Below, piece by piece: positions 19,291-50,367 of a DNA stretch of 64,000 bases; position 1 is the first letter of the stretch, and the number at the start of each line of letters is the position of its first letter. This stretch comes from Stegostoma tigrinum (lineage: Eukaryota). The stretch is from the NCBI RefSeq assembly GCF_030684315.1, contig NC_081356.1:40821197-40885196 (forward strand), read 5' to 3'. Below the pieces are notes generated by a model. The model was not told the DNA's origin and searched no databases. It worked only from the letters and a program-made list of their open reading frames with translations. The position numbers and the translations under genes are program-made.

Positions 19291-22200
19291 TCAAAAATAT
19301 TTCACATGCCTATAATTTCACTGTGCCATTATGTGGAGATTATTATGTGAAGGACTGTTGAGACTTCAGATCAAGAAAATGAAAAAGATAAGTCAATACA
19401 CACAAACAGCAAATGTTTTAGAAGTTGAAATGCCTCAGTGAATGTTAGGACACAAACTTCAGGCAGAAGAGACTGGGGGATTGCTATGAGTGACCAGCAT
19501 GATATAGTGAAATCCAAACTGCTGCTCTTCCAAGACAGGAAATGAGAAATTCTACCCTTTTGAACATGTGGGACTTGAACCTGGGCCTTCCTTACAGGGA
19601 AGTGCACACCAGCCTAATTCTTCCAATATGGGGAACAATGAACAAATCAAGTTAAGCTGCTGATGTGTGTTAGGAACATTATTGTACTTACACAGGATGT
19701 TAACACTTCCAATGGTGTTTCCACCCACTTGTACAGCCCCATGTTCAAATGGACAAAACCATGCAGTTGGCACTGTTTGCTCTCTTGCTGCACTGATTTC
19801 AAAAGGTTTAAACAGGGTGTCACACGCTCCTACATTGGCAGATACTCAGATATATCTAGTACCCCTTAGGCCCCAACCCAATTTAGCCCCTCCAGTTACA
19901 GGTCAGCTGTACCCACCCAGCTTGATTTCAAACACTACTCATTATCTCATTGATTCAAGACAGTCATCCCTCAACCCACTCAACATGACTAAAAATGTTT
20001 CAGATCCTGATAGAGCACAACATACTCTAAGCCACCCCAACACCACCCTTGGCACAGCTTAGACCTTGATAGAGCTCAGTAGCAGTCCCAAGTCAGTGCA
20101 GCAACCCCTTTGATGTGGCTCAGGTGGCTCTACTTTCACCACTACAGATCAATTCTTCTTTCTCCCTCCCAAAAATGTTCACAACACACTGCCCCCCGTC
20201 TTGATGATGCTAATAACCTAATAACAGATCTTCAAGGACATTTTCAATTGATGACAAGAAAAGGGCAGTGGATTTGTTTTAATTGAGCTTTCTTCACCTC
20301 TTACTGTCCTCCTCTGCTTCTCACTGAATTAAATCTGAATGTGGGCCCAGAAAGTGCAAAGATTCCAGTATGAAAAGCTAAGTGGGCAGTTTGAATCACA
20401 ATCTACGATATGAGCTTCCATTCAACAATGTACCTTGTCAGAGTTGATGATTCATAACTTGGCTTGTTTTCGGGCACATTTTCTCATCTTGGGCATGCGC
20501 TGGTGCATCTGTTGAGCACTCAGCATGATATTTCCCATAGTTTTTCTTTAAATAGTTAATGAAACAAAGGTTTCAGAACAGAGACACAACAGAACCAGAT
20601 GAGAAGTCCACAACATTGTGAAGATCTATTGGCTGTCAATACATCTGAAGATAAACAAAAAAAAGAAAAAAATATCAGAGGCAGGCCTGTGTGGCATTTA
20701 TCGCTTTAGATATTATGCCAAGTAAGACTGGTTTAACTAAATCAACTGTCTTCTTTGGAGAATGTTAATTCCATCCCAGTTGATCCTACGATGCCACCAA
20801 CAGAAAGACATCATTATAATCTAAAGAAATTCAGTAGATTTAGTGTTCTATGTGACTAATACCTTCTGTGGCACTGTGTTCAATGCATATAATGTACACA
20901 TTGAAAGTTACGAGGACAGTCATTCATTGCAGAAGGATGCAGACTCAATGAAAAGTGAAGAAAAATTATAAAATGACATTGTTCCAACAAACTTTTAAAA
21001 GAGAAAAATCTTCAGAATAAATTGCGAGTCTTTACTAGTAAAGTAAAGACAGACACTTGGGGGTTCAATCTCACAATGGTAGCTGTTAGAATTTTAAATC
21101 TAAATAATATACTCTGCAAGTGAGAGCTTATCTCAATAACGGTGACTATGCAATGATCATTGATTGCTACAAACAAATGTCTTTTAGGGGAGGAAATCTG
21201 GAATATGATGCAACTCCAGATCCATAGCAATGGGGTTGACTCCTAGCAGCCTCCTAAAATTCCTGAGCAAGCCTTTCAGTTCAATGGTAATTAGGGATGA
21301 GCAATAAATGTTGGCCCCGTCAGCGATGTCCACATCTAATGGAAGAGTAAATAATGTGTGCACAAAGAAATTATTAAGGATCAAAGATGATGTTCACGCC
21401 ATAATGTTATCATGTACAAAATGTGGGAAGTTTTTAATTTGACCAAGGCTGGCAATAAAGATTCCTTCCTCAGCTTGTTCCTTAAACATCCCAAGTCCAT
21501 GTAGCGGACTGGTAATTAAATCTGTATGAAAAGCTTGTTCAACAAAGTTCACCATGACTTAATACCAATAATAATAGACATATCAGAACACAGCTTTTGC
21601 AGTGGTGTCCTTCTCCATTGAAATGACTGGATTCACACCTGACCCAGAGGATACTGTGCCAAGGGATAGAAAGATATGAGGGTGAACCCTGACCTGAAAC
21701 TGACAAGCATTAGAGAAGGGAATTTCTTAATGATCTAGCGACAGCATGTGAGTGGGATTTGGATAATAAATTCAGGATCTTAACCCAGCATGCCAACAGG
21801 CCTTGGAGGAACTGAAAGTGGTGAAGTGGCAGGGAACAACAGGGCATTTGACTGGGAATGAGGTAAGTCATCACCTATTCACCATACTCAAAGGACATGT
21901 AAAAACCCATCATTCAGATCCCTCAGGGCAAAATCCAGCAGACAGTTGTGGCAGGTATCCAAGGTGTATTTCAATGACAGCTGCAAAGATATTGACATCA
22001 ATTGAAGAAGAACAAAGTTCATTAATGCAAGTGATGAGTTGAATGAAACAGTTGGGAATATTTTGAAATATATCACACTGGTATAAAACCTGAAGAAGGG
22101 TCTAGGCCCGAAACATCAGCCTTCCTGCTCCTCTGATGCTGCTTGGCCTGCTGTGTTCATCCAGCTCTACACATTGTTATCTCACAGTGACTAATGCCTA

Positions 22201-22572
22201 CACAGGCACACAGGGATTATAACATAGATGCAACTCCCAGCGTTGCATCAGTTTGGTTTGATTACTGTGTCTTGTTTATGCTTGACAATCCTCAACTGGA
22301 TTATCACCATGGGATTTTTCTGTTTTTATACAAAATTTTGTATGTATCTAAGACTTATAACTCTGAACCAGTTATTATTCTTATTATTATTAGGATTCTT
22401 TTTGTACGCATAGTCATATCACTTATCAGATATATGATGATAGTTTTGACTAAGGTACATAATAGCCTTCACCTTAAAACAGTAGCCTCCACTGACAATG
22501 GCAAAAGCCAACTTTTACAATTAGGTTTGAACTTCATTCACAGAAGACACTTTTCAATTAAAATGGGGGAAA

Positions 22573-23456
22573 TATAGCAGCCTCCTGGCTGCTGAAACAC
22601 AGATAGATGGGAAACTGTGTCAAACATCAAGGGATGCTGGGTATGATGGCCAAGTAAACCTCTGAAAACACAAAACCCAGATACAAACAGCAACTAGGTG
22701 CTAAAGATGTTACCATAGCGTAAAGGACTTGTCTGGTCGACAGTCATCCTGGATAGACATAGCTCATCAACTAAACAAAGAAGGGCTGCATGGTGGGATC
22801 TGAAAGTCAGACACTCAAACCTAAGACAATGGAACAAATATTAAGAGGATAATTGTAGATTAACAAAGCCTTCCAGACAAACTATCAGTAAGCATTAAGC
22901 AGGTTCGCCTAATTCCTAAAGCTATAGAAACATGCAAGACCAAGGCAAAAAGATATCAACATAGAACTTACCTGTAGACGAAGCAGAAAACCTTCCAAGG
23001 AGACTGGCATGGCAAACGGCAGAGGTCCACCAAGTGTCTGGAGAGAGAGATGAGAGAGCAACATCCACGTAGTCCCAGAGTGTAACAAAGACAGGAGAGC
23101 ACAATTGCACAAAACAAGAGACTCAGGAAGGATAGTAAACTTAATGGGCTAGATAGGATTAGAGGTAGTATTGTTTAGTATTGAAATCAATTGTAACTGG
23201 TTTCCAAATAAAGTTGATAATAAAATGTGAGGCTGGATGAACACAGCAGGCCAAGCAGCATCTCAGGAGCACAAAAGCTGACGTTTCGGGCCTAGACCCT
23301 TCATCAGAGCTTCATCATTATCTTGGGATCTCCAGCATCTGCAGTTCCCATTATCTCCAAATAAAGTTGAGATGGTTTTGCATCGTACCAATTTGTGCTC
23401 GTAGTGATTTGACTGCAATCATATTGCGGGAGACCTGGGCAATTAAATACACAACA
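22573..23456 (+). repeat. Array LTR 1 (contains Penelope fragment 23218-23355)
   Basis: Follows PPT AAAATGGGGGAAA; starts TATAGCAGCC (consensus TGTAGCAGCC); AATAAA; ends ...ACACAACA. Insert has 15-bp TSD TCCAAATAAAGTTGA. Confidence 0.8.
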
Positions 23457-24185
23457 TTCTGCTTAGAGTTGTTTAACTTGTTCAATGAGACATGTGCAGC
23501 CTCCTATATAACTGAAGAGGTACACGACAACACATGATTCAAGCACCAACAGGAAGCAATGTGTGGAATGTTATCCTTCAGACAATACCATATAATAATG
23601 GGCATATCTGGGATCCGCTACTGGACTGGTATCTTTTGCCTTTGAAACAGCTCTACTTACACCTGACCCAGAGGATAACGGAGAAAGGGACAGTAAGGTA
23701 CGAGGGTGAATCACGACTTGCAAGTGAAAAACACAACAGAACAGAATTCCTGTTTGATCAAGCAACAGTGCATGGGGAGGAGTGTTGACAGTTAATTGCC
23801 TTGATTTGGCCAATCTGGATAATAAACTCACAATCTTAATCTGACAAGTCAGAAAGACTTTGGCAGAACTGAATGATGACAGTGGCAGGTGACAACAGCA
23901 TAATAGATGAGGAACCAAGCTAGCCACCATTTCGTGATCACACCCAAAAATGCATCAACCAGATCTCTCTGGGCAAAACCATTGATTAGAGAAGGCAACA
24001 AATTCGCAACCTACGTAGTATGGAGGAATCCGAATGGTTGAGCATGCAAAAATCTGTCAATCAAATCTCTCAGTGCAAAATCATAAATGACAGCGGGCAA
24101 CAAAATCGCACTCTGTGTAGTATCTATGGAAACTGGATAGTTGAGCAACTGAGGGAGGATCTCAAATGAGCTAGATAGGGGCCAG

Positions 24186-25686
24186 CTCGAACAGTTCATC
24201 CACTTCACCAACACCTTCCACCCCAACCTTCAGTTCACCTGGGCCATCTCCAGCACATCCCTCACCTTCCTGGACCTCTCAGTCTCCATCTCAGGCAACC
24301 AGCTTGTAACTGATGTCCATTTCAAGCCCACCGACTCCCACAGCTACCTAGAATACACCTCCTCCCACCCACCCTCCTGCAAAAACTCCATCCCCTATTC
24401 CCAATTCCTCCGCCTCCGCCGCATCTGCTCCCACGATAAGACATTCCACTCCCGCACATCCCAGATGTCCAAGTTCTTTAAGGACCGCAACTTCCCCCCC
24501 ACGGTGATTGAGAACGCCCTTGACCGCGTCTCCCGCATTTCCCGCGACACATCCCTCACACCCCGCCCCCGCCACAACCGCCCCAAGAGGATCCCCCTCG
24601 TTCTCACACACCACCCTACCAACCTCCGGATACAACGCATCATCCTCCGACACTTCCGCCATTTACAATCCGACCCCACCACCCAAGACATTTTTCCATC
24701 CCCACCCCTGTCTGCTTTCTGGAGAGACCACTCTCTCCGTGACTCCCTTGTTCGCTCCACACTGCCCTCCAACCCCACCACACCCGGCACCTTCCCCTGC
24801 AACCGCAGGAAATGCTACACTTGTCCCCACACGTCCTCCCTCACCCCCATCCCAGGCCCCAAGATGACATTCCACATTAAGCAGAGGTTCACCTGCACAT
24901 CTGCCAATGTGGTATACTGCATCCACTGTACCCGGTGCGGCTTTCTCTACATTGGGGAAACCAAGCGGAGGCTTGGGGACCGCTTTGCAGAACACCTCCG
25001 CTCAGTTCGCAACAAACAACTGCACCTCCCAGTCGCAAACCATTTCCACTCCCCCTCCCATTCTCTTGATGACATGTCCATCATGGGCCTCCTGCACTGC
25101 CACAATGATGCCACCCGAAGGTTGCAGGAACAGCAACTCATATTCCGCCTGGGAACCCTGCAGCCATATGGTATCAATGTGGACTTCACCAGTTTCAAAA
25201 TCTCCCCTTCCCCCACTGCATCCCTAAACCAGCCCAGTTCATCCCCTCCCCCCACTGCACCACACAACCAGCCCAGCTCTTCCCCCCCACCCACTGCATC
25301 CCAAAACCAGTCCAACCTGTCTCTGCCTCCCTAACCGGTTCTTCCTCTCACCCATCCCTTCCTCCCACCCCCAGCCGCACCCCCAGCTACCTACTAACCT
25401 CATCCCACCTCCTTGACCTGTCCGTCTTCCCTGGACTGACCTATCCCCTCCCTACCTCCCCACCTACACCCTCTCCACCTATCTTCTTTGCTCTCCATCT
25501 TCGGTCCGCCTCCCCCTCTCTCCCTATTTATTCCAGTTCCCTCCCCCCATCCCCCTCTCTGATGAAGGGTCTAGGCCCGAAACGTCAGCTTTTGTGCTCC
25601 TGAGATGCTGCTTGGCCTGCTGTGTTCATCCAGCCTCACATTTTATTATCTTGGAATCTCCAGCATCTGCAGTTCCCATTATCTCT
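24186..25686 (+). mobile_element. Young Penelope-like element inserted in the env of unit B
   Basis: Uninterrupted frame from LEQFIHFTNTFHP through CNRRKCYTC and LYIGETKRRLGDRFAEH to LGTLQPYGIN; 14-bp TSD TAGATAGGGGCCAG (24172-24185, 25687-25700). Confidence 0.95.
24465..25334 (+). CDS. Penelope RT C-terminus/linker + GIY-YIG endonuclease (5'-truncated)
   Basis: 289-aa ORF with VVYCIHC..C..LYIGETKRRLGDRFAEH and VANHF motifs, no internal stops. Confidence 0.85.
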   Translation: MSKFFKDRNFPPTVIENALDRVSRISRDTSLTPRPRHNRPKRIPLVLTHHPTNLRIQRIILRHFRHLQSDPTTQDIFPSPPLSAFWRDHSLRDSLVRSTLPSNPTTPGTFPCNRRKCYTCPHTSSLTPIPGPKMTFHIKQRFTCTSANVVYCIHCTRCGFLYIGETKRRLGDRFAEHLRSVRNKQLHLPVANHFHSPSHSLDDMSIMGLLHCHNDATRRLQEQQLIFRLGTLQPYGINVDFTSFKISPSPTASLNQPSSSPPPTAPHNQPSSSPPPTASQNQSNLSLPP

Positions 25687-25992
25687 TAGATAGGGGCCAG
25701 TTCTGTTCTGGATCAGTGCCAAACATCTGGAACATCTGTTCCAGGGAAGGAAACACGCCAACATTTCCAGCTGCCAACTGAACAGTTATCCATGGTATAG
25801 CTCAATGACAGCTGCAAGGTAACTGGCATCTACTGAAGACAAGCAACATTAGTAAATATGAGTGATGCATTGAAATAAACTCTTGGGGGATATTTTGAAA
25901 TGTTACACTTCTATGATACTCTTAGGTATAAAACTTTTACCAGAATGACTGGATCAAGTACAAATGCAATTGATGAACACTTGCCATATTTT

Positions 25993-28892
25993 TAGAGTCA
26001 TAGAGCTGTCTGGCATGGAATCAACTCATCCATACCAACCAGATATCCAAAATTAAGCGAGCCCCATTTGCCAGTATTTGGTCCATATCCCTCTAAACTG
26101 TTCCTAGTGATATACCCATCTAGATGCCTTTTAAATATTGTCATTGTACCAGCCTCCATCACTTCCTCTGATGGCTTATTCCATACATGCACTGCCCGCT
26201 GCATGAAAAAATTTCCTCTTAGGCCCCTTTAAAATCTCCTCCCCCCACCCGTCTTAAACGTATGCCCTCTAGTTTTGGAATTGCCTACCCTTGGTAAAAG
26301 ACCTTGGCTATTCACCCTATTTATGTCCCTCATGATTTTATAAACTTCTATAAGGTCACCCCTCAGGCCAAATGGCCTCAGCATATTCTGCCTCTCCCTA
26401 CAGCTCAAACCCTCAAAATTTGGCAATACTCTTGTAAATCTTTTCCAAACTCTTTCACACTTCACAACATCCTTCAAATAGCAGGAGAGAAGAACTGAAC
26501 AAAGTAATACAAGAATTGCCAAACCAATGTACTGTACAGCTGCAATATGACCTCCTAAGTCCTGTGCTCAATACGCCAACCAATAAAGGCAAGCATACCA
26601 AATGCCTTCTTCACGGCCCTGTCTACCTGAAACAGTAGTTTTGAGGAACTATGAACCTGCACTCCAAGGTCTCTTTGTTCAGCAACAGGACTTTATCAAT
26701 AAGTGTATCAGTCCTGCCCTGATTTGCTTTTCCAAAAAGCAGCACCTCACATTTATCTAAATTAAACTCCATCTGCCACTTCTCGGTCCATTGGCCCATC
26801 TGATCACGGTCCCATTGTTATCTTAGGTTACCTTCTTGGCTGTCCACTACACCTCCAATTTTGGGGCTATCTGCAAACTTACTAAACATGGCTCTATATT
26901 CACATCCAAATCATTTATACAAATGACAAAAGCAGTGGACGAGCACCAATCCTTGTGCCACTGGTCACAGGCCTCCAAGTCTGAAAACTATCCTCTACTA
27001 CTAACCTCTGCCTTCTACCTTTGAGCCAGTTCTGTAGCCAACTGTCTAGTTCTATCAGTATACCATGTGATCTAGCCTTGCTAACCATGAAAAACCTATT
27101 AAGTGCCTTACTGAAATCCATACAGATCACATCCACCACTCTGCCTTCATCAACCCCCTTTGTTTCTTCTTCAAAAAATTCAATCAAGTTAGTGAGACAT
27201 GATTTCTCACACATAAAGCCATGTTGACTATCCGTAATCAGTCCTTGCCTTTCCAAATACATGTAAATCCTATCCCTCAGAATCCCCTCCAAGAATGTGC
27301 CCAGCGTTGATGTCATGCTCACCAGTCAATAATTCCCTGGCTTTTTCTTACCACCTTTCTTAAATAATGGCGCCATGTGAGCCAACTTCCAGCCTTCCGG
27401 CATCTCACTTGTGGAATAGATGATACAAATATCTCAGCAAGGGACGCAGCAATCACTTCCAAAACTTCCCACAAAGTTCTAGGGTATGCCTGATCAAGCA
27501 CCAGGGATTTATCCACCTTTATGCATATTAAGACATTCAGCACCTCCTCTTCTGTAATATGGACATTTTTCAAGATGTCGCTATTTATTTACCCAAGTTC
27601 TTTAGCTTCCATATCCAAAATTAGCACTGATGCAAAATATCCATTCAGTATCTCCCCAATTTCTCGTGGTTTCACACATAGGCAGCCTTGCTGATCTTTA
27701 AGGGGCCCTATTCTCTCCCTAGGTCCCTTTTTGTCCTTAATGTATTTGTGAAATTCCTTTGGATTCTTCTTAACCCTATTTGCCAAAGCTATCTCATGTC
27801 CGATTTTTGCCCTCCTGATTTCCATTTAAGGGTACTTCTACTGCATTTGTACTCTTCTAGGGATTCACTCGGTCCCTGTTGTTTATACCTGACACATGTT
27901 TCCTTCTTTTTCTTGGCCACAACCTGAATTTCTTTCGTTATCCAGTCTTGCCTACGCCTATGAGCCTTGCCCTTCACCCTAACAGGAACATACTTTCTCT
28001 GGACTCTCGAAATCTCATTTTGAATGCTTCCCACTTGTCAGCCATCCCTTTACCTGTGAAAATAAAATGTGAGGCTGGATGAACACATTTTATTTATCAC
28101 ATTTTTTTATCACATTTTATTATCTTGGATTCTCCAGCATCTGCAGTTCCCATTATCTCTGCTACTATTTTAACCCCTTTACCTGTGAATATGTCTAATA
28201 CTGTCAAAATTGGCTCTACTAAATTTAGAACTTTTAACTTTTAGATCTGGACTATCCTTCTCTCTCACTATTGTGAAACTAATACAATTATGATCAGTGC
28301 CTCCAATTCAGGTGCCATCCATGCTTCTTGTACTGATTACTTTTACCCTAGAAGAGATTCTAATGATCTAAAAATGTGAATCCTTCTCTCCTACACCAGC
28401 TCCACAGCCATGCATTCATCTGCCATATCCTCCAATTCCTACTTTCACTTGCTCAAAGCACTGGGAGTAATTCAGATATTACTACCCTCAAGGACTTATC
28501 TTTTTAAATTTCTGCCTAATTTCCTATATTCTGTCCTTAGAACGTCATCTTTTCTCATCCTATGTGGTTGTTTCCAATGCATACAATGACAACCTGCTGG
28601 CCCCTCTCCCCTTTGAGAATATTCTGCACACTCTCCAAGATACCCTTGAGCCTGGCACCATGGAGGCCACACACCATTCTGATGTCTCGTTATTGGCTGA
28701 GAAACATCTGTCTGTGCCTCTGACTGGGCTGTCCCCCATCACAATTGATTGCTTGGAACCTGACCTACCCCTCGTTACAGTAGAGCCAGTCTCAGTAGCA
28801 GAATTTGGCTGCCAGTGCTATATTCCCGTGAAAGTCCATCACCCACTGCATTTTCCAAAACAGCATATTTGTTTGAGATGGGGATAGCCGCA
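25993..28892 (-). mobile_element. Degraded CR1 LINE inserted in the env of unit B
   Basis: ORF1 remnants (ISNKYAVLE, GDSPVRGTDR) at 28560-28890; ORF2 remnants (DSQHGFM..KSCLTNLIEFFEE, LRGDLIEVYKIM). Env sequence is colinear on both sides. Confidence 0.88.
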
Positions 28893-30527
28893 GGTTGTGA
28901 AAATAAAACACAAAGGAGTTTAAAGATGAAGTGAATGAGCTTCAGCCCACCAATGGATATCACGACTTTTGAAATTGGGGTTTAAATCTACAAATTCATC
29001 CATGGATTCGGCTCTTCTCACTTTTAGCTGTGGTCCTAATTGTACTCACCTGGATGTACGTCAGGATGCTGGTGGTTAAGATTGCACATTGGAAAAGACA
29101 GATAACCAAACAGATGGGCACATTCACAATGATTAATCCCTACATATAACCAGGGGCAATGAGATAGAAGGGATATACAGGGTTATGACTATTGTCACTT
29201 CTGTTTGTTCGGATTAGTGTATGTGACCTATGAAACACAATCCTGTATGGATAATTGCCATGAGATTTTTCTGTTTTATTGCAAAATTTTGTCTGTATCT
29301 AAGCCTCACGACTCTGTACATGTCATTACGGGATTTTTTTTTTGTACATACACCTAAATCGCTCATCACACAAATGAAAATAAGCTTGACCAATGTTCAT
29401 AATGGCTTCCACCTTAACATGTAGCCTCCCTTGACAACAACCAGAACATAATGTTACAGTTAGGTTATAAGTTCCTTTGAAGTAGTTTCTTTCTGCTCAA
29501 AACAGTGGAATTGTTGGACAGATAGATCGTCAACTTCACCCAATCATACTTTCTCTGGACTCTCGAAAGCTGGGTATGTTGGCCAAGAAAATTTCTGAAG
29601 TCACAAAACCCAGACAGAAGCTAGATGCTAATGACATTAGTGTAGTGTAAAGGACATATACTGCCAACGGTCATCCTGAGTAGTCATATCTCTTCAAATA
29701 AACAAAGAAGGATGCATTTCTGCAACCAAGAACCAAACACTAAAGCTTGATACAAGGGAACAAATATTGAAAGGATGTTTAATGACTATCAAAGCCATAT
29801 AATCCATTGGTAGCCATTAAGCAAGATTTCTTGATTAGCTGAAACAATAGAAAGATGCAGAGGCAAGGGGAAAAAATATAAAAATAGAACTTGCCTGTTG
29901 ATTAAGGAGGAGACCTTTCAAGGAGACCGACATCGGAAAATTCAGAGATCTGCTGATAGAGGGAGAGAGAGAGAGTAGCTTTGCAGTCACACAGAGAGAC
30001 AGAGAGAATATGGCTCTGCAAAAATATGAGACTTGGGATGCATTGCCATCTCAAAAAAATTTAAAAATAAGATTGTTTAATATGAAAAGCGATTGTAATG
30101 CGTTTCCTAATAAGACCAAAAATCACCAGGTTATAGCCCAACAGGTTTATTTGAAAATACAACCTTTCATAACTCAGCTCCCTCCTCGGGCAGAGTGAGA
30201 GAGAGAGAAAGTTATAAGACACAGAATTTATTAGCAGAAAGGTGACAACCCTAAAACTGGCCGCCTCTTGTTGAATCATTAATCAGTTAGGAAGGAAACT
30301 ACTGATTAAAATGTAAAATCCACATTCCTCTCAAGTCATTGTCCTGAGATAATTAAAGGTTTTATCAATGTATACAAGAGGTAACATCTCAGGTCAGACA
30401 ATTCATTTTAGATGTGACGTCCTGCTTAGAATCTGTCCATGTTTTAAACTGATGTCAGGTTTTATTTTGTTGAGCATAAAAGAATGTACCTGCAACTACA
30501 CAAACATCTTACATGAAATAATTCAAG

Positions 30528-30630
30528 TCTGTGTCTGTGTGTGTACATGTGTGTGTCAGTGTCTCTGTGTGTGTCCATGCCTGAGTCCATGTCTGTGAGT
30601 GTGAGCGTGAGTGTGTGAATGTGAGTGTGA

Positions 30631-30662
<32 letters not shown>

Positions 30663-30705
30663 AAGCCAGAGAGAGAATGTGTTTGTGTGAAAGAGTGTGT
30701 GTGTA
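30528..30705 (+). repeat. Imperfect (GT)n/(GA)n microsatellite
   Basis: Direct inspection. Confidence 0.9.
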
Positions 30706-33077: not shown

Positions 33078-33099
33078 ACTACAAGTGGCTCCAACACTC

Positions 33100-38232: not shown

Positions 38233-39363
38233 TTCTGATTGTAGTTGTCTAACTTATTTAAGTAGGCACATGTAGCCTCTGATATAACTAAGGAGGGACA
38301 AGACACACATGTTTCAAGCACCAACAGAAAGCAATATTCCAGGAGTGGGATTTAACTTTGACTCTATAAGTCAGCCGTGACATTAAATTCCTGCTTTGTC
38401 GTTCCCAAGCACTCAGCGAGAGTGGACAGGATGCAACGTTGACTTTGTCAAAGATTTATTGAAATTAAATGGATCAAGGCCAGAAATAAAATTACTTTAA
38501 CCAGCTTGTCCCATAAGTATCCCAGGCCCACATAACGGACTGGTAATTAAACTTACAGGCAAAGTTTATTTTGACAATGTCCACCACAAATTAATACCAA
38601 TAATAGTGGATTTATTTGGGACCCAGCTATTGGAGTGGCACCTTATTCCACTCTGTTCACAGATTACGCAGAGGCTAATTGGCAGAAATATAGGAAGATG
38701 TGAGAGTAAGAGAGCAGAACTCCTTAATGATTCAGCCACAGTGTATCAGGCAGAAATGTCGACAGCCGATTCCGAAATTAAGGAGTAGATTGTTAAGATC
38801 CAACCCAGCATCTGGTGGGATGGCTTTTGGAACTATGGTTCAAATCTAGAAATTCATCAATCGATTTGGCTCCTTTTGCATCTAGCTATGGCCTTACTTG
38901 TACTCACATTTCCATACCTCAGGATGCTGGCAGTTAAGATTGCTTGTTGGAAATGGCAGATATTCCAATAGATGGCATGTTCACTAAGAACGCTCACAAA
39001 GAAGTTATAAGGTAGATGGAACTCCCAAAGTTATTACTGTTGTCACTTCTATTTGTTCTGATGACTGTATATTGTATATGCATCACAAACACTGTGTGGA
39101 TCATCATCAAGAGATTTTCTTTTCTTTAGTGAATTTGGTATTTATGTAAACCACACAGATCTGTAGGTGTTATTAAGGTGCCATTAATATTTTTGCTCCA
39201 TATTGTTATATCATTTATCAGAAGCATGGCGATAGCCTTGACCAGTCTCCAAAATGGCTTATAACTTAACACATCGCCTCCACTGACAACAACCAGATGC
39301 AACTTTTGCAATGAGGTTTGCACTTCATTTGCAGAAGATCCTATCCATTCAATACAGGGGAAA

Positions 39364-40102
39364 GGTAGCAGCCTCTTGGCTGCTAAAACACAGATAGATG
39401 GCCACCTTGGTTGAACAGCATGGAATGCTTGGTACGTTGACCAAATTAGTCTCTGAAATCACAGTACCAAGACATAAAAAGCAACTATGCGCTAAAGACA
39501 TTTTGCACAACAAAAAGGACATATCTTGTCAACAGTCATTCTGCATAGACATAACACATCAACCAAGCAAAGAAGGGATGCACACTAGCAACCAAGAACC
39601 AAGCACTCAAGCAAAAGCAGTGGAACAAACGTTAACAGAACATGTAATGATTAACAAAGGCATCAAACCATCAGCAGCTGTTAAGAACGATCTCATGATT
39701 AAGTAGAGCCTTAGAAAGATCCAGATGTGAGGGGAAAAGCGCTAAAACTAAATCTTACCTGTACATCAAGCAGCAGACCTTCCTGAGAAGACCAACATGG
39801 GAAAAGGCAGAAACCAGCTGAGCATCAGGAGACAGAGAGGGAGGAAGTGAAAGAGCAGTTTCGCAGACCCTCAGAGAGACAGAGACAAAGACAGAGAGCT
39901 GTTGCACAAAACTACAAGAGGCTCAGGAGGCATTGTAAGCTTTAGGACAAATTGATTTAGATATACTATATTTTAGTTTTAAAAGCTATTGTAATGTCTT
40001 TCTGAATAAAGTTCAAACCGTTTTGCATTAGTACCACTTTGTGTTTGTAGTGATTTGACTGCTTCAGTATTGTGGGACTCCTGCGCAAATTAATTCACAA
40101 CA
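39364..40102 (+). repeat. Array LTR 5
   Basis: PPT ACAGGGGAAA then GGTAGCAGCC; AATAAA; ends TTCACAACA. Confidence 0.82.
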
Positions 40103-40449
40103 CTCTGTTTGGTGTTGTCTAGCTTGTTTAAGGAGGCACACATGCAGCGGTTGATATAACTAAGGGGTGGGGACAAAACAAAGCATGATTCAAGAACTAA
40201 TGGGAAGCAATGGTGTGGAATGTTATCCTTCAGACCTTTAGACAACTTGGAGATCAATAGTACATTTGGAATCTGCACCAGGAGCGAATTAGCAGTGACT
40301 CTTTAAGTCAGCCACAACATTAAACTCCTGCTTCCACATTTCCCAAACACTCAGTGAGAATGGGCGAGATGAAGTGCTAACTTTGTCAAAAGATTTCCTG
40401 AAAATATAAATGCACCAAGGTCGGCAGTAAAGCTCCCTTCTTCAGCTTG

Positions 40450-41600
40450 ATCCATTAGCATCCCAGGTCCACATAATGACTGCTAATTAAACCCACAACC
40501 ATAGGTGTGTTTGACTATGTTCACCACAAATTAATACTAATAACAATATACATATCTGGGATCCAGTTTCTGCAGTGTTGCCCCTCCCCATTGAAACGAG
40601 TTTACTTGCTCCTGACCCGGAAAATAATGGCCAAGGGATAGTAAGATATGAGGGTGAACCCTGACCTGAAACTGACAAGCATATAAGAAGGGAATTTCTT
40701 AATGATCTAGTGACAGCTAAGGAGTGGGAGTGTCCACGTTTAATTCCCTTGATTTGGCCAATTTGGATGATAAACTCATGACCTTAACCTGTCAAGTCAA
40801 ACAGGACTTTGAGGAACTGAACCACAATAAGCAGCAGGAGACAACAACACAATGGATGGGGAGCCAGTCTAGCCATCACCTAATGACTATGCTCGAAGGG
40901 CATGAGAAAACTCACCAACAGATTTCTCAGGGCAAAATTGTAGAATTCAGCAGGCAACAAAATCATAAGCTGTGTAGCATCTATGCACAATGGAGCAAAA
41001 TGAGGAGGATCTCAGAGAGACTAGCCGGGGGAATGTCTTGTCCCGTATCAGTTACAATCATCTGGAACATCTGTACCAAGGGAGGAAACATGCCAACATT
41101 CTCAGCTGCCAAGTGAGTCAGTTAGTCAAGATGTGGTTCAACGACAACTGCAAAGAAATTGACATCCACCAAAGACAAGTGATATTAATAAATGTGAGTG
41201 GTGGGTTGAAAGAATCTCTTGGCAAATGTTTTGAAAAATATGACACTGGCATAAACATTTTTCCAAGAGATTTGATGAAGTTGTAATCAGGTTGATAAGC
41301 ACTCATAAAAAACATTTGTAAAAACAATACAAAACTAAAAGGTGTTGAATTGGTTGGATGAGATTCAGTCCAGCAAGGGTTGGGATGAGTTTTGGAACTG
41401 GGATTCAATCTACAATTTCATCCCCTCTCATGTCTATTTGGCTCCTCTCAAGTCTATTTGTGGTCCTAGTTATACTCAACTTGATATACCATAGAATGCT
41501 GGTGCTTAAGATTGCAGGTTGAAAAAGACATATATCCCAAGAGATAGCATGCTTACAATGAATAATGCCTGTACATGCGTCCGGGGGGTTTATGATAGCT
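40450..41600 (+). pseudogene. env: Best-preserved array env pseudogene (unit F)
   Basis: Frameshifted translation: ...DYVHHKLILITIYISGIQFLQCCPSPLKRVY...ETDKHIRREFLNDLVTA/GVSTFNSLDLANLDDKLMTLTCQVKQDFEELNHN...EDLRETSRG...HLEHLYQGRKHANILSCQVSQLVKMWFNDNCKEIDIHQRQVILINVSGGLKESLGKCFEKYDTGINIFPRDL...WDEFWNW...LLSSLFVVLVILNLIYHRMLVLKIAG (ORFs 40724-41116 and 40990-41286). Confidence 0.75.
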
Positions 41601-41942
41601 GGAACTCCCAGGGCTATCACTGTTGCCACTTCCATTTGTTCTGATTACTGCATGTTGTATATGCATCATAATGCTGCGTGGATTATTGCTGATGGATTTT
41701 TTAAAACTGAACTTGGCATTTATTTAAGTTACACAGGTCTATACATGCTATTAAGGCAGGATTGTCTTCTTTTTGTTCTTGTTGTTGTATCACTTATTAG
41801 ACATGGAATGATGGCCTTGATCAGTCTCCATTATGGCTTTTACCTAAACTCCCAGCTTACCCTGACAGCAACCAGGTGCAACTTTTACAATGGGGTTTGA
41901 ACTTAATTCGCAGGAGATTCTGCCCATTCAATAGGTGGGAAA

Positions 41943-42771
41943 TGTGGCATGTCTTCTGGCTGCGAAAGTACGGATACACCTTGGCCAAAGAACAAGGGAT
42001 GTTGGGCATGTTGGCCAAGTTAATCTCTAAAGGCACAGTACCAAGATACAAACAGCGACTAGTTGTTAAAGACATTATCATGCTTCAAACGACAAATACT
42101 GTCAATATAATAAAATGTGAGGCTGGACGAACACAGCAGGCCAAGCAGCATCTCAGGAGCACAAAAGCTGACGTTTCGGGCCTAGACCCTTCATCAATAC
42201 TGTCAATAGTTTTCCTGAATAAATATATCATATCAACTAAACAAAGAAGGGATGAACATTAGCAAACAAAGAATCAGACATTTAAGTCTTAAGAAAGGAA
42301 CAAACATCAACTGGAAACAACGATTGACAAAGCCATCGAAACCATCAGTAGCTATTAATCAGGATCTCTTGATTAGCTAAAGCTATAGAAAGATTCAGAG
42401 GTAAGAGCAAGAGATATAACATTAAGACTGACCTGTTGATCAAACAGGAAATCTTCCAAGGAGACTGACATGGCAAAAGGCAGAGACCTTCTGAGTGTCG
42501 GGAGAGAGGAAAAGACCGAGCTGCTTTGCAGTCCCATGGAGAGGCAGAGATGGAGATACCATGGTTCCGCAAAACTACAACATACTCAGGAGGCATTGTA
42601 ATTAACTGTAAGGGGACGAATAGGGTTAGAGTTCATATTGTTTAGTGTGAAAGGCAAGTGAAACTTGTTTCCTAATTAGATTGAGACTGTTTTGTATTGG
42701 TACTGACTTGTATTTGCAGTGATCTGACTGCTTTGATATGGTGGGATACCTGAGCAAATTTATTCATAACA
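41943..42771 (+). repeat. Array LTR 6 (contains Penelope fragment ~42107-42196)
   Basis: AGGTGGGAAA then TGTGGCA; ends TTCATAACA. Insert flanked by AATACTGTCAATA repeat. Confidence 0.8.
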
Positions 42772-43959
42772 TTCCAGTTGGCATTGTCTAACTTGGTTAA
42801 GGAAGCACGTGCAGCCTCTGATATATTTTAGGAGGATGAGACTTAACATGATTCAAGCAGATGGGAAGCAATGTGTGCAATAATATCCTTCAGACAACTG
42901 GGAGATCAAGAGCAGATTTGGAATCTGTTCCAGGAGCAAATTTAGCAGTGGCTCTTTAGGTCAACCATGACATTAAGCTCCTGCTTCCACCTTTTCCGAG
43001 CACTCAGTGAGAGTGGACAGGATGAAGCAATAAATTTGTCACAGGTTTCATGAAATTAAAATTGGACCAAGGCTGGCAATAGAGATTCTTTCCTTAACAT
43101 TTCCCATAATCACCCCAGGCCCATGTAGTAGGCTGATAATTAAATTTTCAGACATTGTTTGACAATGCCCACCATGAATTAATGCCCATAATATTAGACA
43201 TAAGCTGGTGGCTTGCCTGGTTATTAGACATATCTAGGACACAGTTTCCGATGTGGTGCCTACCTCCATTGAAACAACTGTACTCATATCTGATGAAGCA
43301 TAATGGTCTGATGGACAAGATGATATGAGGGTGAATCACGACCCGAAACTGACAAACATAAGAGAATGGAACTCCATCATGACCAAGCAACAGCATATGG
43401 GACGGGAATGTCAACAGTTAATTCCCTTGATTTGACCAATTTGGATAATAAACTCACAACCTTAACCTGACAAATCAAACAGACCTTGGAATAACTGAAC
43501 CACAACATGTATCAGGAGACAACAGCACAACTGATGGGCAACCAAACTAGCCACCAGCTAGCGACCACATTCAAAGATCATGCACAAAGCCATTAACCAG
43601 ATCACTCTGGGCAAAACCATAAATGACAGCAGGCAACAAATCTGCACCATGTGTAGTATCTATGGAAACTGGATGGTTGAGCTACTTGGGGGAGGATCTC
43701 AGGCAGGCAGGCCAGGGAAAGACCCATCCAAGAGCAGTGATGAACATCTGGAACATCTGTTCTGAGGAAGGAAACACGCCCACATTTCCAGCTGCCAGTT
43801 GTGGCTGTTTACTAAGGTGTGGGTCAATAACATCTGTAAGGAAACTGAGATCTACTGAAGCTAAGCGACATTCATAAATGCAAGTGAAAAGTTGAAAGAA
43901 ACTCTTGATGAGTATTTTGAAATATATGATACTGATATAAAACTTTGACAAGAAAGATT

Positions 43960-44277
43960 GATTAGATTAGATTCCCTACAGTGTGGTAACAGGCCTTTTG
44001 GCCCAACAAGTCCACACCACCCCCTGGAGCATCCTACCCAGACCCATCCCCCTCTAACCCACACACCCCTGAACACTACGGGCAATTTAACATGGCCACT
44101 CCATCTAGCCTGCACATTTTTGGGCTGTGGGAGGAAACCAGAGCACCCGGAGAAAACCCACACAGGCACAAGGAAAATGTGCAAACTCTGCACAGACAGT
44201 TGCCCGAGGCTGGAATTGAACCAGGGTCCCTGGTGCTGTCAGGCTGTAGTGCTAACCACTGAGCCACCGTGCCACCC
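43960..44277 (-). mobile_element. HE1-like SINE in the env of unit G
   Basis: Reverse complement reads GGGTGGCACGGTGGCTCAGTGGTTAGCACT...GGTTCAATTCC, then the core, then a (TCTAA)n tail. Confidence 0.85.
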
Positions 44278-44446
44278 AAGCATGAATACAGTTGATGAAC
44301 ACTCACTAAACATTCATGAAAATAATACAAAAGATGAAAGAATTGAGGATGAAATGAATGACATTCAACCCCCAAAGTGGTGGGATGGCTCTGGAAATTA
44401 GAGCTCAAACCTACAAATTCATTCATGGATTTGACTCCTCTCACAT

Positions 44447-44719
44447 AAAATCCCTACAGTATGGAAACCACACCCAGACCCATCCCCTTATAACCCACCT
44501 AAGCTACACATCTCTGAACGTGACAGATAATTTAGCATGGTTAATCCACCTAACCTGAGCAGTCTTTGGACTGTGGGAGGAAACCGGAGCACCTGGAGGA
44601 AACCCACACAGACATGGAGGGAATATGCAAACACCATACACAGTCCCCTGAGGGTGGAATTGAGCCTGGGTCCCTGGCACTGTGAGGCAGCAGTGCTAAC
44701 CACTGAGCCACTGTGCCAC
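44447..44719 (-). mobile_element. HE1-like SINE in the env of unit G
   Basis: Same head (GTGGCACAGTGGCTCAGTGGTTAGCACTGCTGCC) and core on the minus strand. Confidence 0.85.
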
Positions 44720-45209
44720 TCCTAGCTGTGCTCCTAATTGTACTCACCTTGATATATCTCATTATGCCGGGAATTAAGATTGCAATCCAGAAAAGTCAGA
44801 TATCCCAACGGACAGGATTGCTCACTGTGAAGAAGGTGTGTACACGCACGCAGGGGTTATAAGATAGGTGGAACTCCTGGCATTATCACTATTGTCTGCA
44901 CTATTTGTTCTATGACTAAAAGTTGTCATTGCATGATAATCCTGTAAGGTTTCTCACCATGGGACTTTACTTTCTTTTACTAGCGTTTGTACGTATTTTA
45001 GCCTCAAAATTCTGTACAAATCATCATGGTTTTTCCTTTTTTTTATACATGTAGTTATTTCACTTATCAGACAAATGATGATAGGTTTGACTAATGTACA
45101 AAATGGATTTCACCATAACACATCAACCCCCGACAAAAGCCAGTACTATGTTTCACAATTAAGTTTGAACTTAATTTGCACAAGATTCTTTCCTTTCAAA
45201 CTGGGATAA

Positions 45210-45906
45210 TGAAGCAGCCTCGTAGCTGTGAGAACACAGGCTAAGTAGACCAAACAGCAAGAGATGCCTGATATGTTGGCCAGGTAAATCTTTGAAGTCA
45301 TAAAATCCAGACACAAACAGCGAATGGGTGCTAAAGATACGGGCATATGCTGTCAACAGTCACCCTGGATGGATGTATCTCATCAAATAAACAAAGAAGG
45401 GATGCATATGAGCAAACACGAACCAGACACTCAAGCTTAATATAACCCAACACACAGTTATGGGACATTTAGCTATTAACAAAGCCATTAAAACCATCAG
45501 AAGCCTTCAAGCAGGGTCTCCTGATTGTCTAAATCTACAGAAAGATCCAGACCTGAGAGAAAAAGGTCTGAAAATAGAACTCACCTGGAGATGAAGCAGA
45601 AAATCTTCCGAGGAGACCAGCCTGCCAAATGGCAAAGACCTGCTGAGCATCCGGGGAAAGAGGGAAAAAGAGGAAGAGAGAATGCAAATTTGTAGTCCCA
45701 CAGAGAGAGATAGAGAAACTACAAGAGGCTTGGGAAGTATTGTAAGCTTTAGAGCGAATAGGTCCAGAGATAGTAACTTTTGGTATTAAAAGCTACTTTA
45801 ATGTGTTTCCCAATAAAGTTAAAACTGTTTTGCATTACTGACTTGTGTTTGTAGTGATATGACTGCTTCGGTATTGTGGGACATCTGGGTAAATTAATTC
45901 ACAACG
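45210..45906 (+). repeat. Array LTR 7
   Basis: Starts TGAAGCAGCC; AATAAA at ~45812; ends TTCACAACG; followed by TTCTGGTTGGAGTCGTCT. Confidence 0.8.
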
Positions 45907-47300
45907 TTCTGGTTGGAGTCGTCTCACTTGTTTAAGGAAGCTGACATGCAACCTCTGATATATTTATGGAGGAACCAGACAAAACATGATTCAAGCACCA
46001 ACAGGAAGCAATTTATGGAATATTATTCTTCAGACAATCAGAAAACGACAAGTTCGAGAGCAGGTTCCAATCTGTTACAGGAGCAGATTTAGATTTTTTT
46101 TAAGGCAGCTACATTAAAATCCTATGTTCATGTTAGGATCTAAACCAGGAAAGTCAAACAGGCCTTGGATGAACTAAACAAGGAGAACCAGCAGGAGCCA
46201 AAAGGACAATTGATGGTTAACCAGTCTATCCACCACCTAGAGACCATACTGAAAGGTCATGCAAAGAACTGTCTACCAGGTCACTCAGGGCAAAATCTTA
46301 GATGACAACAAGCAACATAATTCCACCTTGTGTAGAATCTATGGAAATCGAATGGTTGAGTAACTGAGAGAGGATCTTAATCTGGCTAGCCAAGGGAAAA
46401 TCCTGTCCTGGATCAGTGATAAATACTGGAACATCAGTTACGGAGAAGCAAACATGTCAACATTCCCAGCTGCCAATCAAGGCAGTTAACCAAAGTGTGG
46501 TTCAATGACAGCTGCAAGGAAATTGAGATCTACTGAAGACAAGCGACATTTGTAAATGCGAGTGATGAATGGGAATATTTTGAAAAATAAAATTCTGCCA
46601 TAAGATTTTCACCAGAAAGATTTGATAAAGTCAGAATGCAGTTGATGAACACTCACCAAACATTTGTTAAAAAAAATACAGCCCACAAAGGAGTTGAAAG
46701 ATGAAATGAATGTGATTTAACCCATCAACTAGTGGGATGATTTTTGGAATTGGGGTTCAAATCTACAAATTCGCCCATGGAATTAGCTCCTCTCTCCTTT
46801 ACCTGTGGTCCTAATTGCACTCACCCTGATAAACTTCAGGATGTTGGTGGTTAAGAATACAGGCTGGAAAACACAGGGATCTGAACAAATGGGCACAGCC
46901 ACTGTAAATAATGCCTGTACACACACACACACACAGAGGTTATCAGATAGAAGAAACATCCAGTGTTATCCCTGTTTGCACTTCTATTTGTTCTCATTAG
47001 TGTATGTCGTCTATGGATCACAATCCTGTGTGGATTATCACCACAGGGTCTTTCTATATTACTGCAAAATTTTCTGTGTATCTAAGCCTCACAACGCTGT
47101 ACGGTTTATTACGGCAAGGTTTTCTATTTTTTTGTATTGGCAGTTAAATCACTTATCAGACAAATGATGGTAGCTTGACCAAAGTATTTAATGGCCTTCA
47201 CTTTAATATGTAGCCTCCCCTGACAACAACCAGAATCCAATTTTACAATTAGATAAGAACATCCTTCACAGAAGATTCTTTCCACTCAAAACAGGGGAAA

Positions 47301-48664
47301 AAAAGCAGCCACTAGGTGCTGAAGATTTCAGCATAGTGCAAAGGACATATCCTGTCAACATGACAAAAAGCAGAGACCCACTGAGTGTGCAGAGAGAGAC
47401 AAGGAGCTTTGCAGTCTCACAGCCAGCAAGATAGAGTGTGATTGTGCAAAACTATAAGAGATTCAGGAAGTATTGTAAGCTTTAGGGCCCAATAGTTTAG
47501 AGAAAGCAAAGTGTGGAGCTGGATGAACACAGACCAAGCAGCATCTTAGGAGCACAAAAGCTGACGTTTCGGGCCTAGACCCTTCATCAGAAAAGGGGGA
47601 TGGGGAGTGGATTTAGAAATAAATAGGGAGGGGGGGAGGTGGGCTGAAGATAGATAGAGGAGAAGATAGTGGAGAGGAGAGTATAGGTGGGGAGGTAGGG
47701 ACGGGATATGTCAGTCTGGGGAGGATGGGCAGGTCAAGGGGGCGGGATGAGGTTACTAGGTAGGAAATGGAGGTGCAGCTTGAGGTGGGAGGAGAGGATA
47801 GGTGAGAGGAAGGCGGGAATGAGCTGGACTGGCTTTGGGATGCAGTGGGGGGAGGGGAGATTTTGAAGCTTGTGAAATCCACATTGATACCATCGGGCTG
47901 CAGGATTCCCAAGCGGAATATGAGTTGCTGTTCCTGCAACCTTCGGTGGCATCATTGTGGCACTGCAGGAAGCCCATGATGGACATGTCATCTAAGGAAT
48001 GGGAGGTGGAGTTAAAATGGTTTGCGACTTGGAGGTGCAGTTGTTTATTGCGAACCGAGCGTAGGTGTTCTGCAAAGCAGTCCCCAAGCCTCCGCTTGGT
48101 TTCCCCAACGTAGAAGAAGCCACAATGGGTACAGCAGATGCAGTATACCACATTGGCAGATGTGCAGATGAACATCTGCTTGATGTGGAAAGTCATCTTG
48201 GGGCCTGGGATGGGGGTGAGGAAGGAGGTGTGGGGGCAGGTGTAGCACTTCCTGCGGTTGGAGGGGAGAGTGCCGTGTGTGGTGGGGTTGGAGTGGGTTG
48301 GGGAGCAGACAAGGGAGTCCCAGAGAGAATGGTCTCTCCGGAAGGTAGACAAGGGTGGGGATGGAAAAATGTCTTTAGTGGTGGGGTCGGATTGTAGATG
48401 GCGGAAGTGTCGGAGGATGATGCATTGTATCCAGAGGTTGGTCGGGTGGTATGTGAGGACGAGGGGGATTCTCTTTTGGCGGTTATTGCCGGGGGCGGGG
48501 TGTGAGGGATGAGTTGCGGGAAATGCGAGTTTAGAGATAGTATTGTTCAGTATTGAAAGCTCTTGTAATTGTTTCCTCATAAAGTTGAGACTGTACTAAC
48601 TCATGGCAATTGTGAAATGACTGCCTTGAAGTTGTGGGACACCTGGGAAAATTCAATCATAACA
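47301..48664 (+). repeat. Array LTR 8 (deleted, split by Penelope 47507-48527)
   Basis: PPT AAAACAGGGGAAA; ends ATCATAACA; followed by ATCTGGTTAGAGTTGTCT. Confidence 0.75.
47507..48527 (-). mobile_element. Penelope-like element, 5'-truncated (GIY-YIG region)
   Basis: RIPLVLTYHP...NVVYCICCTHCGFFYVGETKRRLGD; TSD AGTTTAGAGA(A/T)AG (47494-47506, 48528-48540). Confidence 0.92.
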
Positions 48665-50367
48665 ATCTGGTTAGAGTTGTCTAACTTGCTTAAGGAGACA
48701 CACACGCAGCCTCAGATATAATGAAAATGGGATAAGACGAAATGATTCAAGCACCAATGGGAAGCAATGTGTGGAATGCTATTGCTCAGACCTTCGGACA
48801 AAGTGGAGTTCAACAGCAGGTTTGGAATCTGTTCCAGGATTGGATTTAGCTCTGACTCTATAAGTCAACCATGACATTATATTTCTGCCTCATGTGTTCT
48901 GAACATTGAGAGTAACTGTGATGGAGTGCTGCATTTGTCAAAGGTTTCATTAAATTGTAAGTGGACCATAAGCATCCCGGTGCCATGGAATGGACTGCTA
49001 ATTAAACATAGATGTAAAGTGTTCAACAATAACCACCACAAATTAATGCCAATAATAGTTGACATATCTGGGAGTCAGCTCCGGGAATGGCTCTACTTGC
49101 ACTTGACTAGGAGAATAATGGGCCGTGGGAGTGGAAGATATGATCTTCCAATAAGTGTAAGAGAAGAGAATTCTTTACTAATCTAGCTATGGCATATGAG
49201 GAGGGAGTGTTGACAGTTAATTGCCTTAATTTTGCCAATTTGGATAATAAACTTGGGATCTTAACTGAATAAGTCAAATGCCCTTGGACTTGTTCTGATC
49301 AAGAATCGGCAGGAAAAAAATAGCACAACTGACAGGGAACCAGTTCATTAACCGACTAGTGACATGCGACATTCGTGAATGCGAGTGATGAGTTGAAAGA
49401 AACCCTTGGGAATATTTTGAAATATATGACACTGGAAAAAAACCTTTGACCAGAAAAGTTAGCTCAAATATGAATCCAATTGATGAGCACTCACCAAACT
49501 TTGTCAAAAATCATGCAACACACAAGGGAGTTCAAAGTTGAGATGGATGAGATTCAACCCACCAACAGGTTGTACAAATTTTTAAAATAGCTTTCAGATT
49601 TACAATGCCATACCTAGATTCAGCACTTATCACATCTAGCTGTAATCCTAATTATACTCAACTCAATATCCCTCAGGATGCTGGTCGTTGAGATTGTAGG
49701 GTGGAAAGGTCAGATATCCCAACAGATGGACATGCTCACGATGATTAATGCCCGTACAAGCACCCAGGGGCTTAAAACAGGTGGAACTGCTAGTGTTATC
49801 ATTATTGTTACTTCTACTTGTTCTGATTACTGTATGTTGTCTATGCATCAAAATCCTAGATGGATTATTGTCACAGGATTTTACATTTTTTAAATTGAAT
49901 TTTGCATGTATTTAAAAATCACAACTCTGTACGGATTAGAGTTCACTCTACTTTCACAATGGCTTTTCATTTTTTTTGCGCGCATAATAAAATCACTTAT
50001 CTGACAAATGACGATAAGCTCACACACAAGCCTTGCCACCACCCAGACTGCTACCACACGCAACCCACTGTCAGCCTCAAAATGTCCCCATTAGGTGTTA
50101 TTCATTCCCTTAGACTGACCTTTAATTACACTTTTGTTTGAACAACTATTTTTCTCTCGCTTTGGACTTTATCTCCACCTATTGTATACTTTATCCCCTG
50201 TCCCCACCCCATCTTCTGTATTAATATCAATCTTTTCCTAGCTACCCTCACATCACTCCTGAAGAAGGGTCACTGACACAGAATGTTAACTCTGATTTCT
50301 TTCCATAGATGCTATCAGACCTGCTGAGTTTTTCTAGCAATTTCTGCTTTTCTTTTAGTTAAGAAGC

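Follow-up and report, generated by a model that had tools for sequence, protein, structure and literature searches.

A dead tandem array in the shark Stegostoma tigrinum, probably amplified from the junction between a provirus and its host flank

A tandem array of endogenous retroviral sequence occupies positions 21434-50016 of a 64,000-nucleotide (nt) stretch of the Stegostoma tigrinum genome (hereafter the window; contig NC_081356.1, termed C3, 40821197-40885196, forward strand). Natural copies of the retroviral family, when mapped onto the window, resolve the array into nine envelope (env)-bearing internal segments that alternate with eight long terminal repeats (LTRs), all on the plus strand. 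The array unit is composed of the 3ʹ part of env, a polypurine tract, a 3ʹ LTR and a flank of host DNA, and both this anatomy and an origin at the level of DNA can be stated with high confidence. The array as a whole is dead, and it probably goes back to an ancient tandem amplification in which a junction of provirus and host was multiplied as DNA, rather than to mobile env-only elements.

Anatomy of the repeated unit

Self-comparison of the window revealed a same-strand repeat family, 65-77% identical between pairs of copies, that spans the entire array. Moreover, profiles built from natural copies detected exactly eight LTRs in the window together with 40 kb upstream and 20 kb downstream. 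An earlier note on this DNA had described nine internal units and eight spacers on one strand, each spacer preceded by a polypurine tract, and had considered the array a tandem amplification; self-comparison, copy mapping and profiles agree with this description, including a purine tract ahead of every array LTR. Element sequence accounts for approximately 18.4 kb of the 28.6-kb array, and the remainder consists of nested insertions, which lie at a different position in each affected unit (Table 1). An env probe matches seven of the nine units and env profiles match all nine, while gag, protease (PR), reverse transcriptase (RT) and integrase (IN) probes from dispersed relatives have no match anywhere in the window. 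The units thus lack pol and retain env as their sole coding remnant, as the note had maintained. An assembly artefact was judged unlikely, given that the units diverge by 23-35% and that the insertions are unit-specific. Four sequencing runs (two samples, one study) contain 94-99% of the words of 36400-44000, and these runs may be the assembly's own source; the share is 6-8% in a second organism, and no RNA run was listed as containing the sequence. Duplicated host-gene exons were ruled out by the LTR termini, the target-site duplications (TSDs) and the linkage to gag and pol.

The spacer is a retroviral LTR. It is dispersed on many contigs (at least 46 matches, with the best 40 of 486 candidates scored in a genome search), and dispersed copies with TG...CA termini start with a TGTAGCAGCC-like sequence and end in ...GACAACA. 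A 4-bp TSD with at most one mismatch was present in 13 of 20 scorable pairs, four of them exact, against a shuffled expectation of 1.95 (p<0.0001), and no signal was obtained at lengths of 3, 5 or 6 bp. The scorable pairs come from 68 examined loci, of which 20 could be scored at their outer ends after exclusion of two duplicates, of ends not placed within 2 nt and of ends adjoining a purine tract or TGG. Dispersed solo copies, termini and 4-bp duplications therefore bear out the note's identification of the spacer as an LTR. The boundary that it proposed requires correction: TTCACAACA had been taken as the LTR end, and solo and 3ʹ LTRs continue 45-70 nt further, to ...GACAACA, which places the TGG following TTCACAACA, formerly regarded as a primer site, within the LTR. 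Additionally, TGTAGCAGCC and AAAACAGGGGAAA, which the note had quoted, were each found exactly once, the remaining copies being degenerate.

All eight array LTRs end at the same base, after which up to approximately 205-220 bp of a non-viral, low-copy repeat follows and joins mid-env. The sequence after each of the eight is CATGATTCAAG-like. Its first 16 bases match the foreign repeat at 13-16 positions, whereas after dispersed 5ʹ LTRs the count is 3-7 of 16. A profile of six foreign-repeat copies from outside the array matches all eight LTR junctions in the 124 kb searched; six of these matches start at model position 232-233, two reach slightly into the LTR end, and there is no further match below E 0.7 in the same 124 kb. 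Eight of the nine internal segments begin with non-viral DNA, which the earlier note overlooked. DNA which begins at the last base of an LTR, and which viral copies lack, would most simply be the flank of an integration site.

Copies of the foreign repeat outside the array are located on C3 at 38.09, 40.10, 40.28 and 42.1 Mb and on contig C44, and in these copies the repeat continues on both sides. One of them (L106) has no LTR or env within 10 kb. The repeat is old, low in copy number and at least 880 bp long, it is clustered within about 4 Mb around the array (L213-L217, L140 and L141 on C3 at 38.09-42.1 Mb; L142 on C44), and no family was found for it in Pfam or Rfam.

At its other end, the flank meets env at one common point in units 3, 5, 6, 7 and 9, approximately 205-220 bp on where the flank is not internally deleted, and this junction carries a short shared TGAA-like word. 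The junction point is deleted in units 2, 4 and 8, in units 2 and 4 by one common deletion, and unit 1 starts about 15 bp past the corresponding position. Genome searches with the LTR-flank junction returned only the array (seven of seven scored candidates), and the flank-env junction returned array matches as well as single copies of the foreign repeat and of env. A mobile non-autonomous env-only element would be expected to have dispersed copies of its unit, and none was found in these junction searches, in which the best candidates were scored.

The array unit additionally lacks the sequence needed to prime its own copying. Dispersed elements carry a polypurine tract before their 3ʹ LTRs and a primer site after their 5ʹ LTRs, where a TGG-type motif, picked by eye, is common to ten dispersed 5ʹ LTRs. 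These sites match the family motif at 7-12 of 12 positions (one of the LTRs being the reference itself). The motif follows none of the eight array LTRs, where 3-5 of 12 positions match. No matching primer tRNA was identified in a genome tRNA sample that contained 10 anticodon types; tRNA-Asn is a tentative guess for the family's primer. A unit without a primer-binding site is not reverse-transcribable by the standard retroviral mechanism, and the array unit is therefore predicted to be unable to retrotranspose.

Table 1. Features of the array in window coordinates.
Feature	Position	Strand	Remarks
Unit 1 env remnant and polypurine tract	21434..22572	+	short repeat inserted at 22090-22182
LTR 1	22573..23532	+	short repeat inserted at 23216-23357
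Non-viral flank 1	23533..23583	+	shortened by deletion common to flank 3
Unit 2 env remnant	23584..29511	+	GIY-YIG (Penelope-like) element at 24181-25686; long interspersed nuclear element (LINE) pieces at ~25990-28894
LTR 2	29512..33928	+	split by 3.6-kb insertion at 30114-33738
Non-viral flank 2	33929..34133	+	complete, ~205 bp
Unit 3 env remnant and polypurine tract	34134..35436	+	
LTR 3	35437..36426	+	short repeat inserted at 36164-36365
Non-viral flank 3	36427..36477	+	deletion as in flank 1
Unit 4 env remnant and polypurine tract	36478..37872	+	
LTR 4	37873..38307	+	internal deletion of ~370 bp
Non-viral flank 4	38308..38457	+	internal deletion
Unit 5 env remnant and polypurine tract	38458..39363	+	large internal deletion
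LTR 5	39364..40183	+	uninterrupted, ~820 bp
Non-viral flank 5	40184..40400	+	complete, ~215 bp
Unit 6 env remnant, longest	40401..41942	+	late surface subunit (SU), basic cleavage site, putative fusion peptide, heptad repeat, hydrophobic transmembrane (TM) segment, polypurine tract; stops, frameshifts
LTR 6	41943..42846	+	short repeat inserted at 42103-42196
Non-viral flank 6	42847..43055	+	complete
Unit 7 env remnant and polypurine tract	43056..45209	+	two short-repeat insertions
LTR 7	45210..45984	+	uninterrupted
Non-viral flank 7	45985..46131	+	3ʹ part deleted
Unit 8 env remnant and polypurine tract	46132..47300	+	
LTR 8	47301..48740	+	partly deleted; minus-strand Penelope-like insertion at ~47496-48530
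Non-viral flank 8	48741..48946	+	complete
Unit 9 env remnant	48947..50016	+	stops short of polypurine tract; no final LTR

Envelope decay, divergence and age

The array env starts near residue 147 of a 673-amino acid (aa) shark homologue and therefore lacks the signal peptide and early SU (approximately the first 145 residues). Units 2, 4, 6 and 7, in which this was measured, have lost about 450 nt of the TM ectodomain that L046 retains. The env pieces align on a basic cleavage site, a putative fusion peptide and a heptad repeat, followed by a hydrophobic segment; these labels follow the general plan of class I fusion proteins. The array env decays neutrally. Across eight units (unit 5 lacks the scored region), 121 synonymous and 320 non-synonymous differences were counted, where the mutation spectrum of the LTRs predicts 117 and 324 (p=0.67). 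All eight scored units are broken: among 851 codons there are 18 in-frame stops, and each unit has 1-6 indels of non-triplet length. The array would make no protein.

An env profile retrieved 22 proteins at E<=0.001 among 1.84 billion searched, and nine of the ten looked up are unnamed shark proteins, in keeping with a cartilaginous-fish host. Annotated homologues in other sharks (five genera; P0005, P0008, P0012 and P0018) are unnamed proteins of 398-673 aa without a Pfam model. In further searches, 24 array translations had no meaningful match in Pfam, env and its shark homologues had no Pfam or PDB match and none to PF00523, and PDB sequence searches with env gave chance-level matches only. 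Word-based homologue searches returned nothing for env or RT, a viral-contig scan no relative and a protein atlas search no match. AlphaFold models (mean predicted local distance difference test scores of 57 and 34) were too poor for comparison, and one fold search gave no match at E<=0.001.

An env tree computed from 607 aligned columns separates the nine array units from 23 dispersed copies (ultrafast bootstrap, UFBoot, 94). Head-to-tail monomers with one shared derived junction thus descend from a single founder, as is characteristic of a tandem repeat derived from a transposable element; the single founder is evident from the shared junctions, the shared env deletion of about 450 nt and the monophyly of the units. 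The env p-distance is 0.307 within the array (Kimura two-parameter, K2P, 0.40; 36 pairs), 0.357 between array and dispersed copies and 0.308 among dispersed copies. The array units are star-like, with near-equal distances (p 0.23-0.35) and short internal branches that group units 2 and 4 (with 8), 3 and 7, and 5 and 6. The array LTRs (K2P 0.355) likewise form a star-like tree. The within-array distance and the unit-specific insertions are not those of an array undergoing homogenization by concerted evolution.

Penelope-like, GIY-YIG-bearing retroelement copies are present in the window at 4004-5650, 24181-25686 and 47496-48530. The one inside unit 2 shares 98% identity with a GIY-YIG-bearing copy approximately 740 kb away and is a young insertion in an old array. 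The family labels of the unit 2 insertions (Penelope-like, LINE) are in part tentative.

The divergence corresponds to about 0.2 substitutions per site per lineage, which amounts to approximately 90 million years at a mammalian rate and to an impossible 900 million years or so at an assumed shark rate (rates from PMC4422223). Since sharks mutate slowly (PMC10587355), the array is likely older than about 90 million years, an age that is poorly bounded.

Origin of the array

The sequences show how the unit is built, that it has no primer site, that all units belong to one clade and that env decays neutrally. Beyond this, we infer the following course of events. An endogenous retrovirus with a snakehead retrovirus (SnRV)-like RT would have integrated into one copy of the low-copy repeat clustered at C3 38-42 Mb. 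End joining at a few bases of microhomology would then have fused a point approximately 215 bp past the 3ʹ LTR to mid-env, producing a tandem duplicate of about 2.6 kb; we give this exact first step roughly even chances. Unequal crossing-over could then have raised the copy number rapidly to nine or more, and a small number of later duplications would account for the kinship of units 2, 4 and 8. Homogenization would have stopped thereafter, both array ends and the proviral 5ʹ half would have been lost, and other elements would have inserted unit by unit.

Several observations weigh against this account. Simple duplication of an intact provirus predicts a 5ʹ proviral half, a 5ʹ LTR and the upstream half of the foreign repeat; all three were sought and none was found, and the search for the upstream repeat half beside a 5ʹ LTR returned one self match only. 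Both array ends fall inside env, and profiles applied to the window, 40 kb upstream and 20 kb downstream found no terminal LTR at either end, for which later loss of the ends may be the reason. That unit 1 starts only about 15 bp away from the position of the junction would suit a circle that was reinserted, or a founder already truncated at that point. The microhomology at the junction is short and may be due to chance in copies that are about 30% diverged. Furthermore, a dispersed solo LTR (L015) falls weakly inside the radiation of array LTRs, and the genome junction searches scored the best candidates only, so that the absence of these junctions elsewhere is a lower bound.

The same unit and the same junctions would also result from two neighboring insertions of one family. 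A deletion between the two would leave an LTR-flank-env-LTR arrangement from which unequal crossover of both LTRs could build the array. There are precedents: LTR-LTR unequal crossover has been proposed for tandem arrays of HERV-K (PMC13648407), and a double insertion is known as a satellite seed in Drosophila (10.1101/158386). However, the scheme requires two insertions plus a deletion, and it predicts terminal LTRs, of which none was found, and two recombining LTR haplotypes, whereas the LTR tree is star-like. We regard it as unlikely, if credible.

A DNA circle offers a different route to the same unit. A piece comprising env, LTR and flank could have left a donor provirus by excision, multiplied through rolling-circle replication and returned to the chromosome here as a single concatemer. 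The star-like tree with its near-equal distances would be expected from such an event, as would the lack, throughout 124 kb, of both a 5ʹ proviral half and a terminal LTR and a first unit that starts at about the junction position; on the same contig, the foreign repeat recurs at distances of 0.6-2.7 Mb. Yet no donor site in which the upstream repeat half adjoins an LTR was found, the subclade of units 2, 4 and 8 and the deletion common to 2 and 4 indicate at least some stepwise duplication, and a star is also expected from a fast series of crossovers long ago. This origin is a doubtful one. It is similarly improbable that the array is the fossil of an extrachromosomal circle concatemer, frozen since, likely for more than 90 million years; if true, the locus would preserve, in a vertebrate germ line, an instance of circle amplification that can be dated.

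The earlier note had interpreted the units as non-autonomous env-only elements sharing LTRs, expanded through their own LTRs or integrated as a multimer, by analogy with arrays of plant terminal-repeat retrotransposons in miniature (TRIMs) such as Cassandra. LTR and internal segments do alternate, and the family has produced short, TSD-flanked deleted elements (L116 and L117) as well as a tandem with a primer site (L034). The array differs from such elements: no primer site follows any of its eight LTRs (3-5 of 12 matches, compared with 7-12 of 12), non-viral host DNA is fused to the LTR terminal base, the unit was not found dispersed and terminal LTRs are absent. Env-only elements are thus largely refuted as the source and very improbable, multimer integration is unlikely on account of the missing primer site, the fused flank and the lack of dispersed copies, and the analogy with Cassandra fails on primer site and array ends.

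The idea that the host kept the array because it was useful, be it in Env-based restriction, in small-RNA silencing or as an enhancer cluster, has in its favor only the very long persistence of eight LTRs in cis and is extremely improbable, as env is neutrally decaying, broken in every scored unit and devoid of its signal peptide and part of the TM ectodomain, and the LTRs are almost as diverged as env (K2P 0.355 versus 0.40).

Parent family, known systems and significance

The parent of the array appears to be a gag-pol-env endogenous retrovirus family whose RT, compared by eye, resembles that of SnRV. The locus L045 contains an LTR, PR, RT, an integrase zinc finger and env, and its relative L099 contains zf-CCHC, RVT_1, RT_RNaseH_2, RNase_H (22.3 bits, below the cut-off) and rve. 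A further locus, L100, links this pol to the same type of env downstream. The RTs of L099 and L100 are 43-50% identical to that of L045, making them relatives and not the direct parent. Together, the three loci establish a gag-pol-env order with a dual RNase H, and the autonomous parent for which the earlier note recommended a search is thereby found, as a family, among the dispersed copies. The best PDB match of the N-terminal part of RT is foamy virus RT (E 8e-5), and that of the C-terminal part is murine leukemia virus (MLV) RT (E 3e-19, compared with 2e-8 for Ty3). By eye, the RT motifs are closer to the SnRV row than to the Loki rows of a published alignment (PMC7947760 supplement).

Gag-env copies devoid of pol, as well as very short derivatives, likewise stem from this family. 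Its many internally deleted derivatives (L032, L116, L117, L125, L039 and L112) comprise LTR-LTR elements of 2-4 kb, an internal env duplication and a duplicated block of purine tract and LTR; L116 (1.9 kb) and L117 (4.3 kb) are short elements with TSDs. Locus L034 (C3:72604400-72608900, minus strand) is a canonical tandem of the family, ordered env-LTR-primer site-gag-env-LTR, with env 3ʹ parts K2P 0.15 apart; a primer site follows its shared LTR, and the locus is a useful contrast to the array. A degraded and more distant provirus of the same broad group, with RT, tether and env remnants, lies at C3 ~40809300-40822200 (L087, L086 and window positions 1-~1000). This provirus just upstream was rejected as the founder of the array, because it carries an env of its own and no LTR of the array type could be detected at the site. 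Elsewhere, three env remnants (L036, L037 and L038; C41 at 37.33, 37.45 and 37.60 Mb) are spaced about 130 kb apart and L121 (C53) and L122 (C37) form a near-identical pair on two contigs, which suggests segmental duplication. Locus L098 (C55:10911500-10921499) encodes a retroviral-like PR-RT with open frames of 308 and 379 aa and belongs to a different and probably younger family.

Tandem arrays with shared LTRs are known from HERV-K(HML-2), with up to six copies (PMC13648407), and from plant LTR retrotransposons and TRIMs, where they are described as TSD-flanked (PMC11899658). The Stegostoma array shares with them the alternation of LTR and internal segment in one orientation and, likely, expansion by unequal recombination. 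Those tandems repeat the element's own internal region, whereas the array unit includes host DNA from beyond the LTR. Moreover, the array lacks a primer site and terminal LTRs, retains only the 3ʹ part of env and has copies about 31% apart. Unlike an array of that type, it is not bounded by LTRs and one TSD, its ends perhaps having been lost later.

A likeness is also found among tandem repeats derived from retroelements, which include maize CRM1TR and CRM4TR, potato Sobo and Ctenomys RPCS; the 4.7-kb Sobo monomer consists of LTR, satellite and genomic DNA (PMC3648361, PMC9659126). In these repeats too, the monomer goes back to an illegitimate join inside or beside an LTR element and was multiplied at the DNA level, and Sobo likewise mixes LTR and genomic DNA. 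However, the known examples are far larger or homogenized, while the array has nine units, carries a vertebrate retroviral env and froze early.

SnRV-related endogenous retroviruses occur in the elephant shark (CmiERV lineage I; PMC4422223) and belong to clade Huo, class III (PMC6001957). The parent family resembles them in its gag zinc knuckle, PR, RT, tether, RNase H, integrase and env, in its chondrichthyan host and, by eye, in its RT; unlike them, the array itself lacks pol, and its env matches only unnamed shark proteins. A dual RNase H, a Ty3-like tether and an env with basic cleavage site, heptad repeat and TM segment are also features of Lokiretroviruses (PMC7947760). Unlike these, the parent RT has LPQGF and QYVDDL as in canonical retroviruses (by eye), and its best PDB match is MLV RT. 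Lokiretrovirus identity was rejected, the Loki-type RT motifs being absent by eye against the supplement of PMC7947760; a table of that paper records Loki in none of three chondrichthyan genomes.

No comparable array in a cartilaginous fish was found in the literature searched, which omits most subscription papers. The array belongs to a known kind, the retroelement-derived tandem repeat; it is real and unusual but dead, and no function is evident. It points to a little-described family of shark env without a Pfam model and, if very old, would serve in comparisons across sharks as a synteny marker and neutral clock. It also calls for caution, in that LTR-internal-LTR arrays may mimic mobile env-only elements even though they are DNA duplications that include host flank. 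Finally, the locus indicates that the insertion of a vertebrate retrovirus can seed a macrosatellite-like array that dies before it is homogenized, and this early death preserves the founding junctions that are erased in mature satellites.

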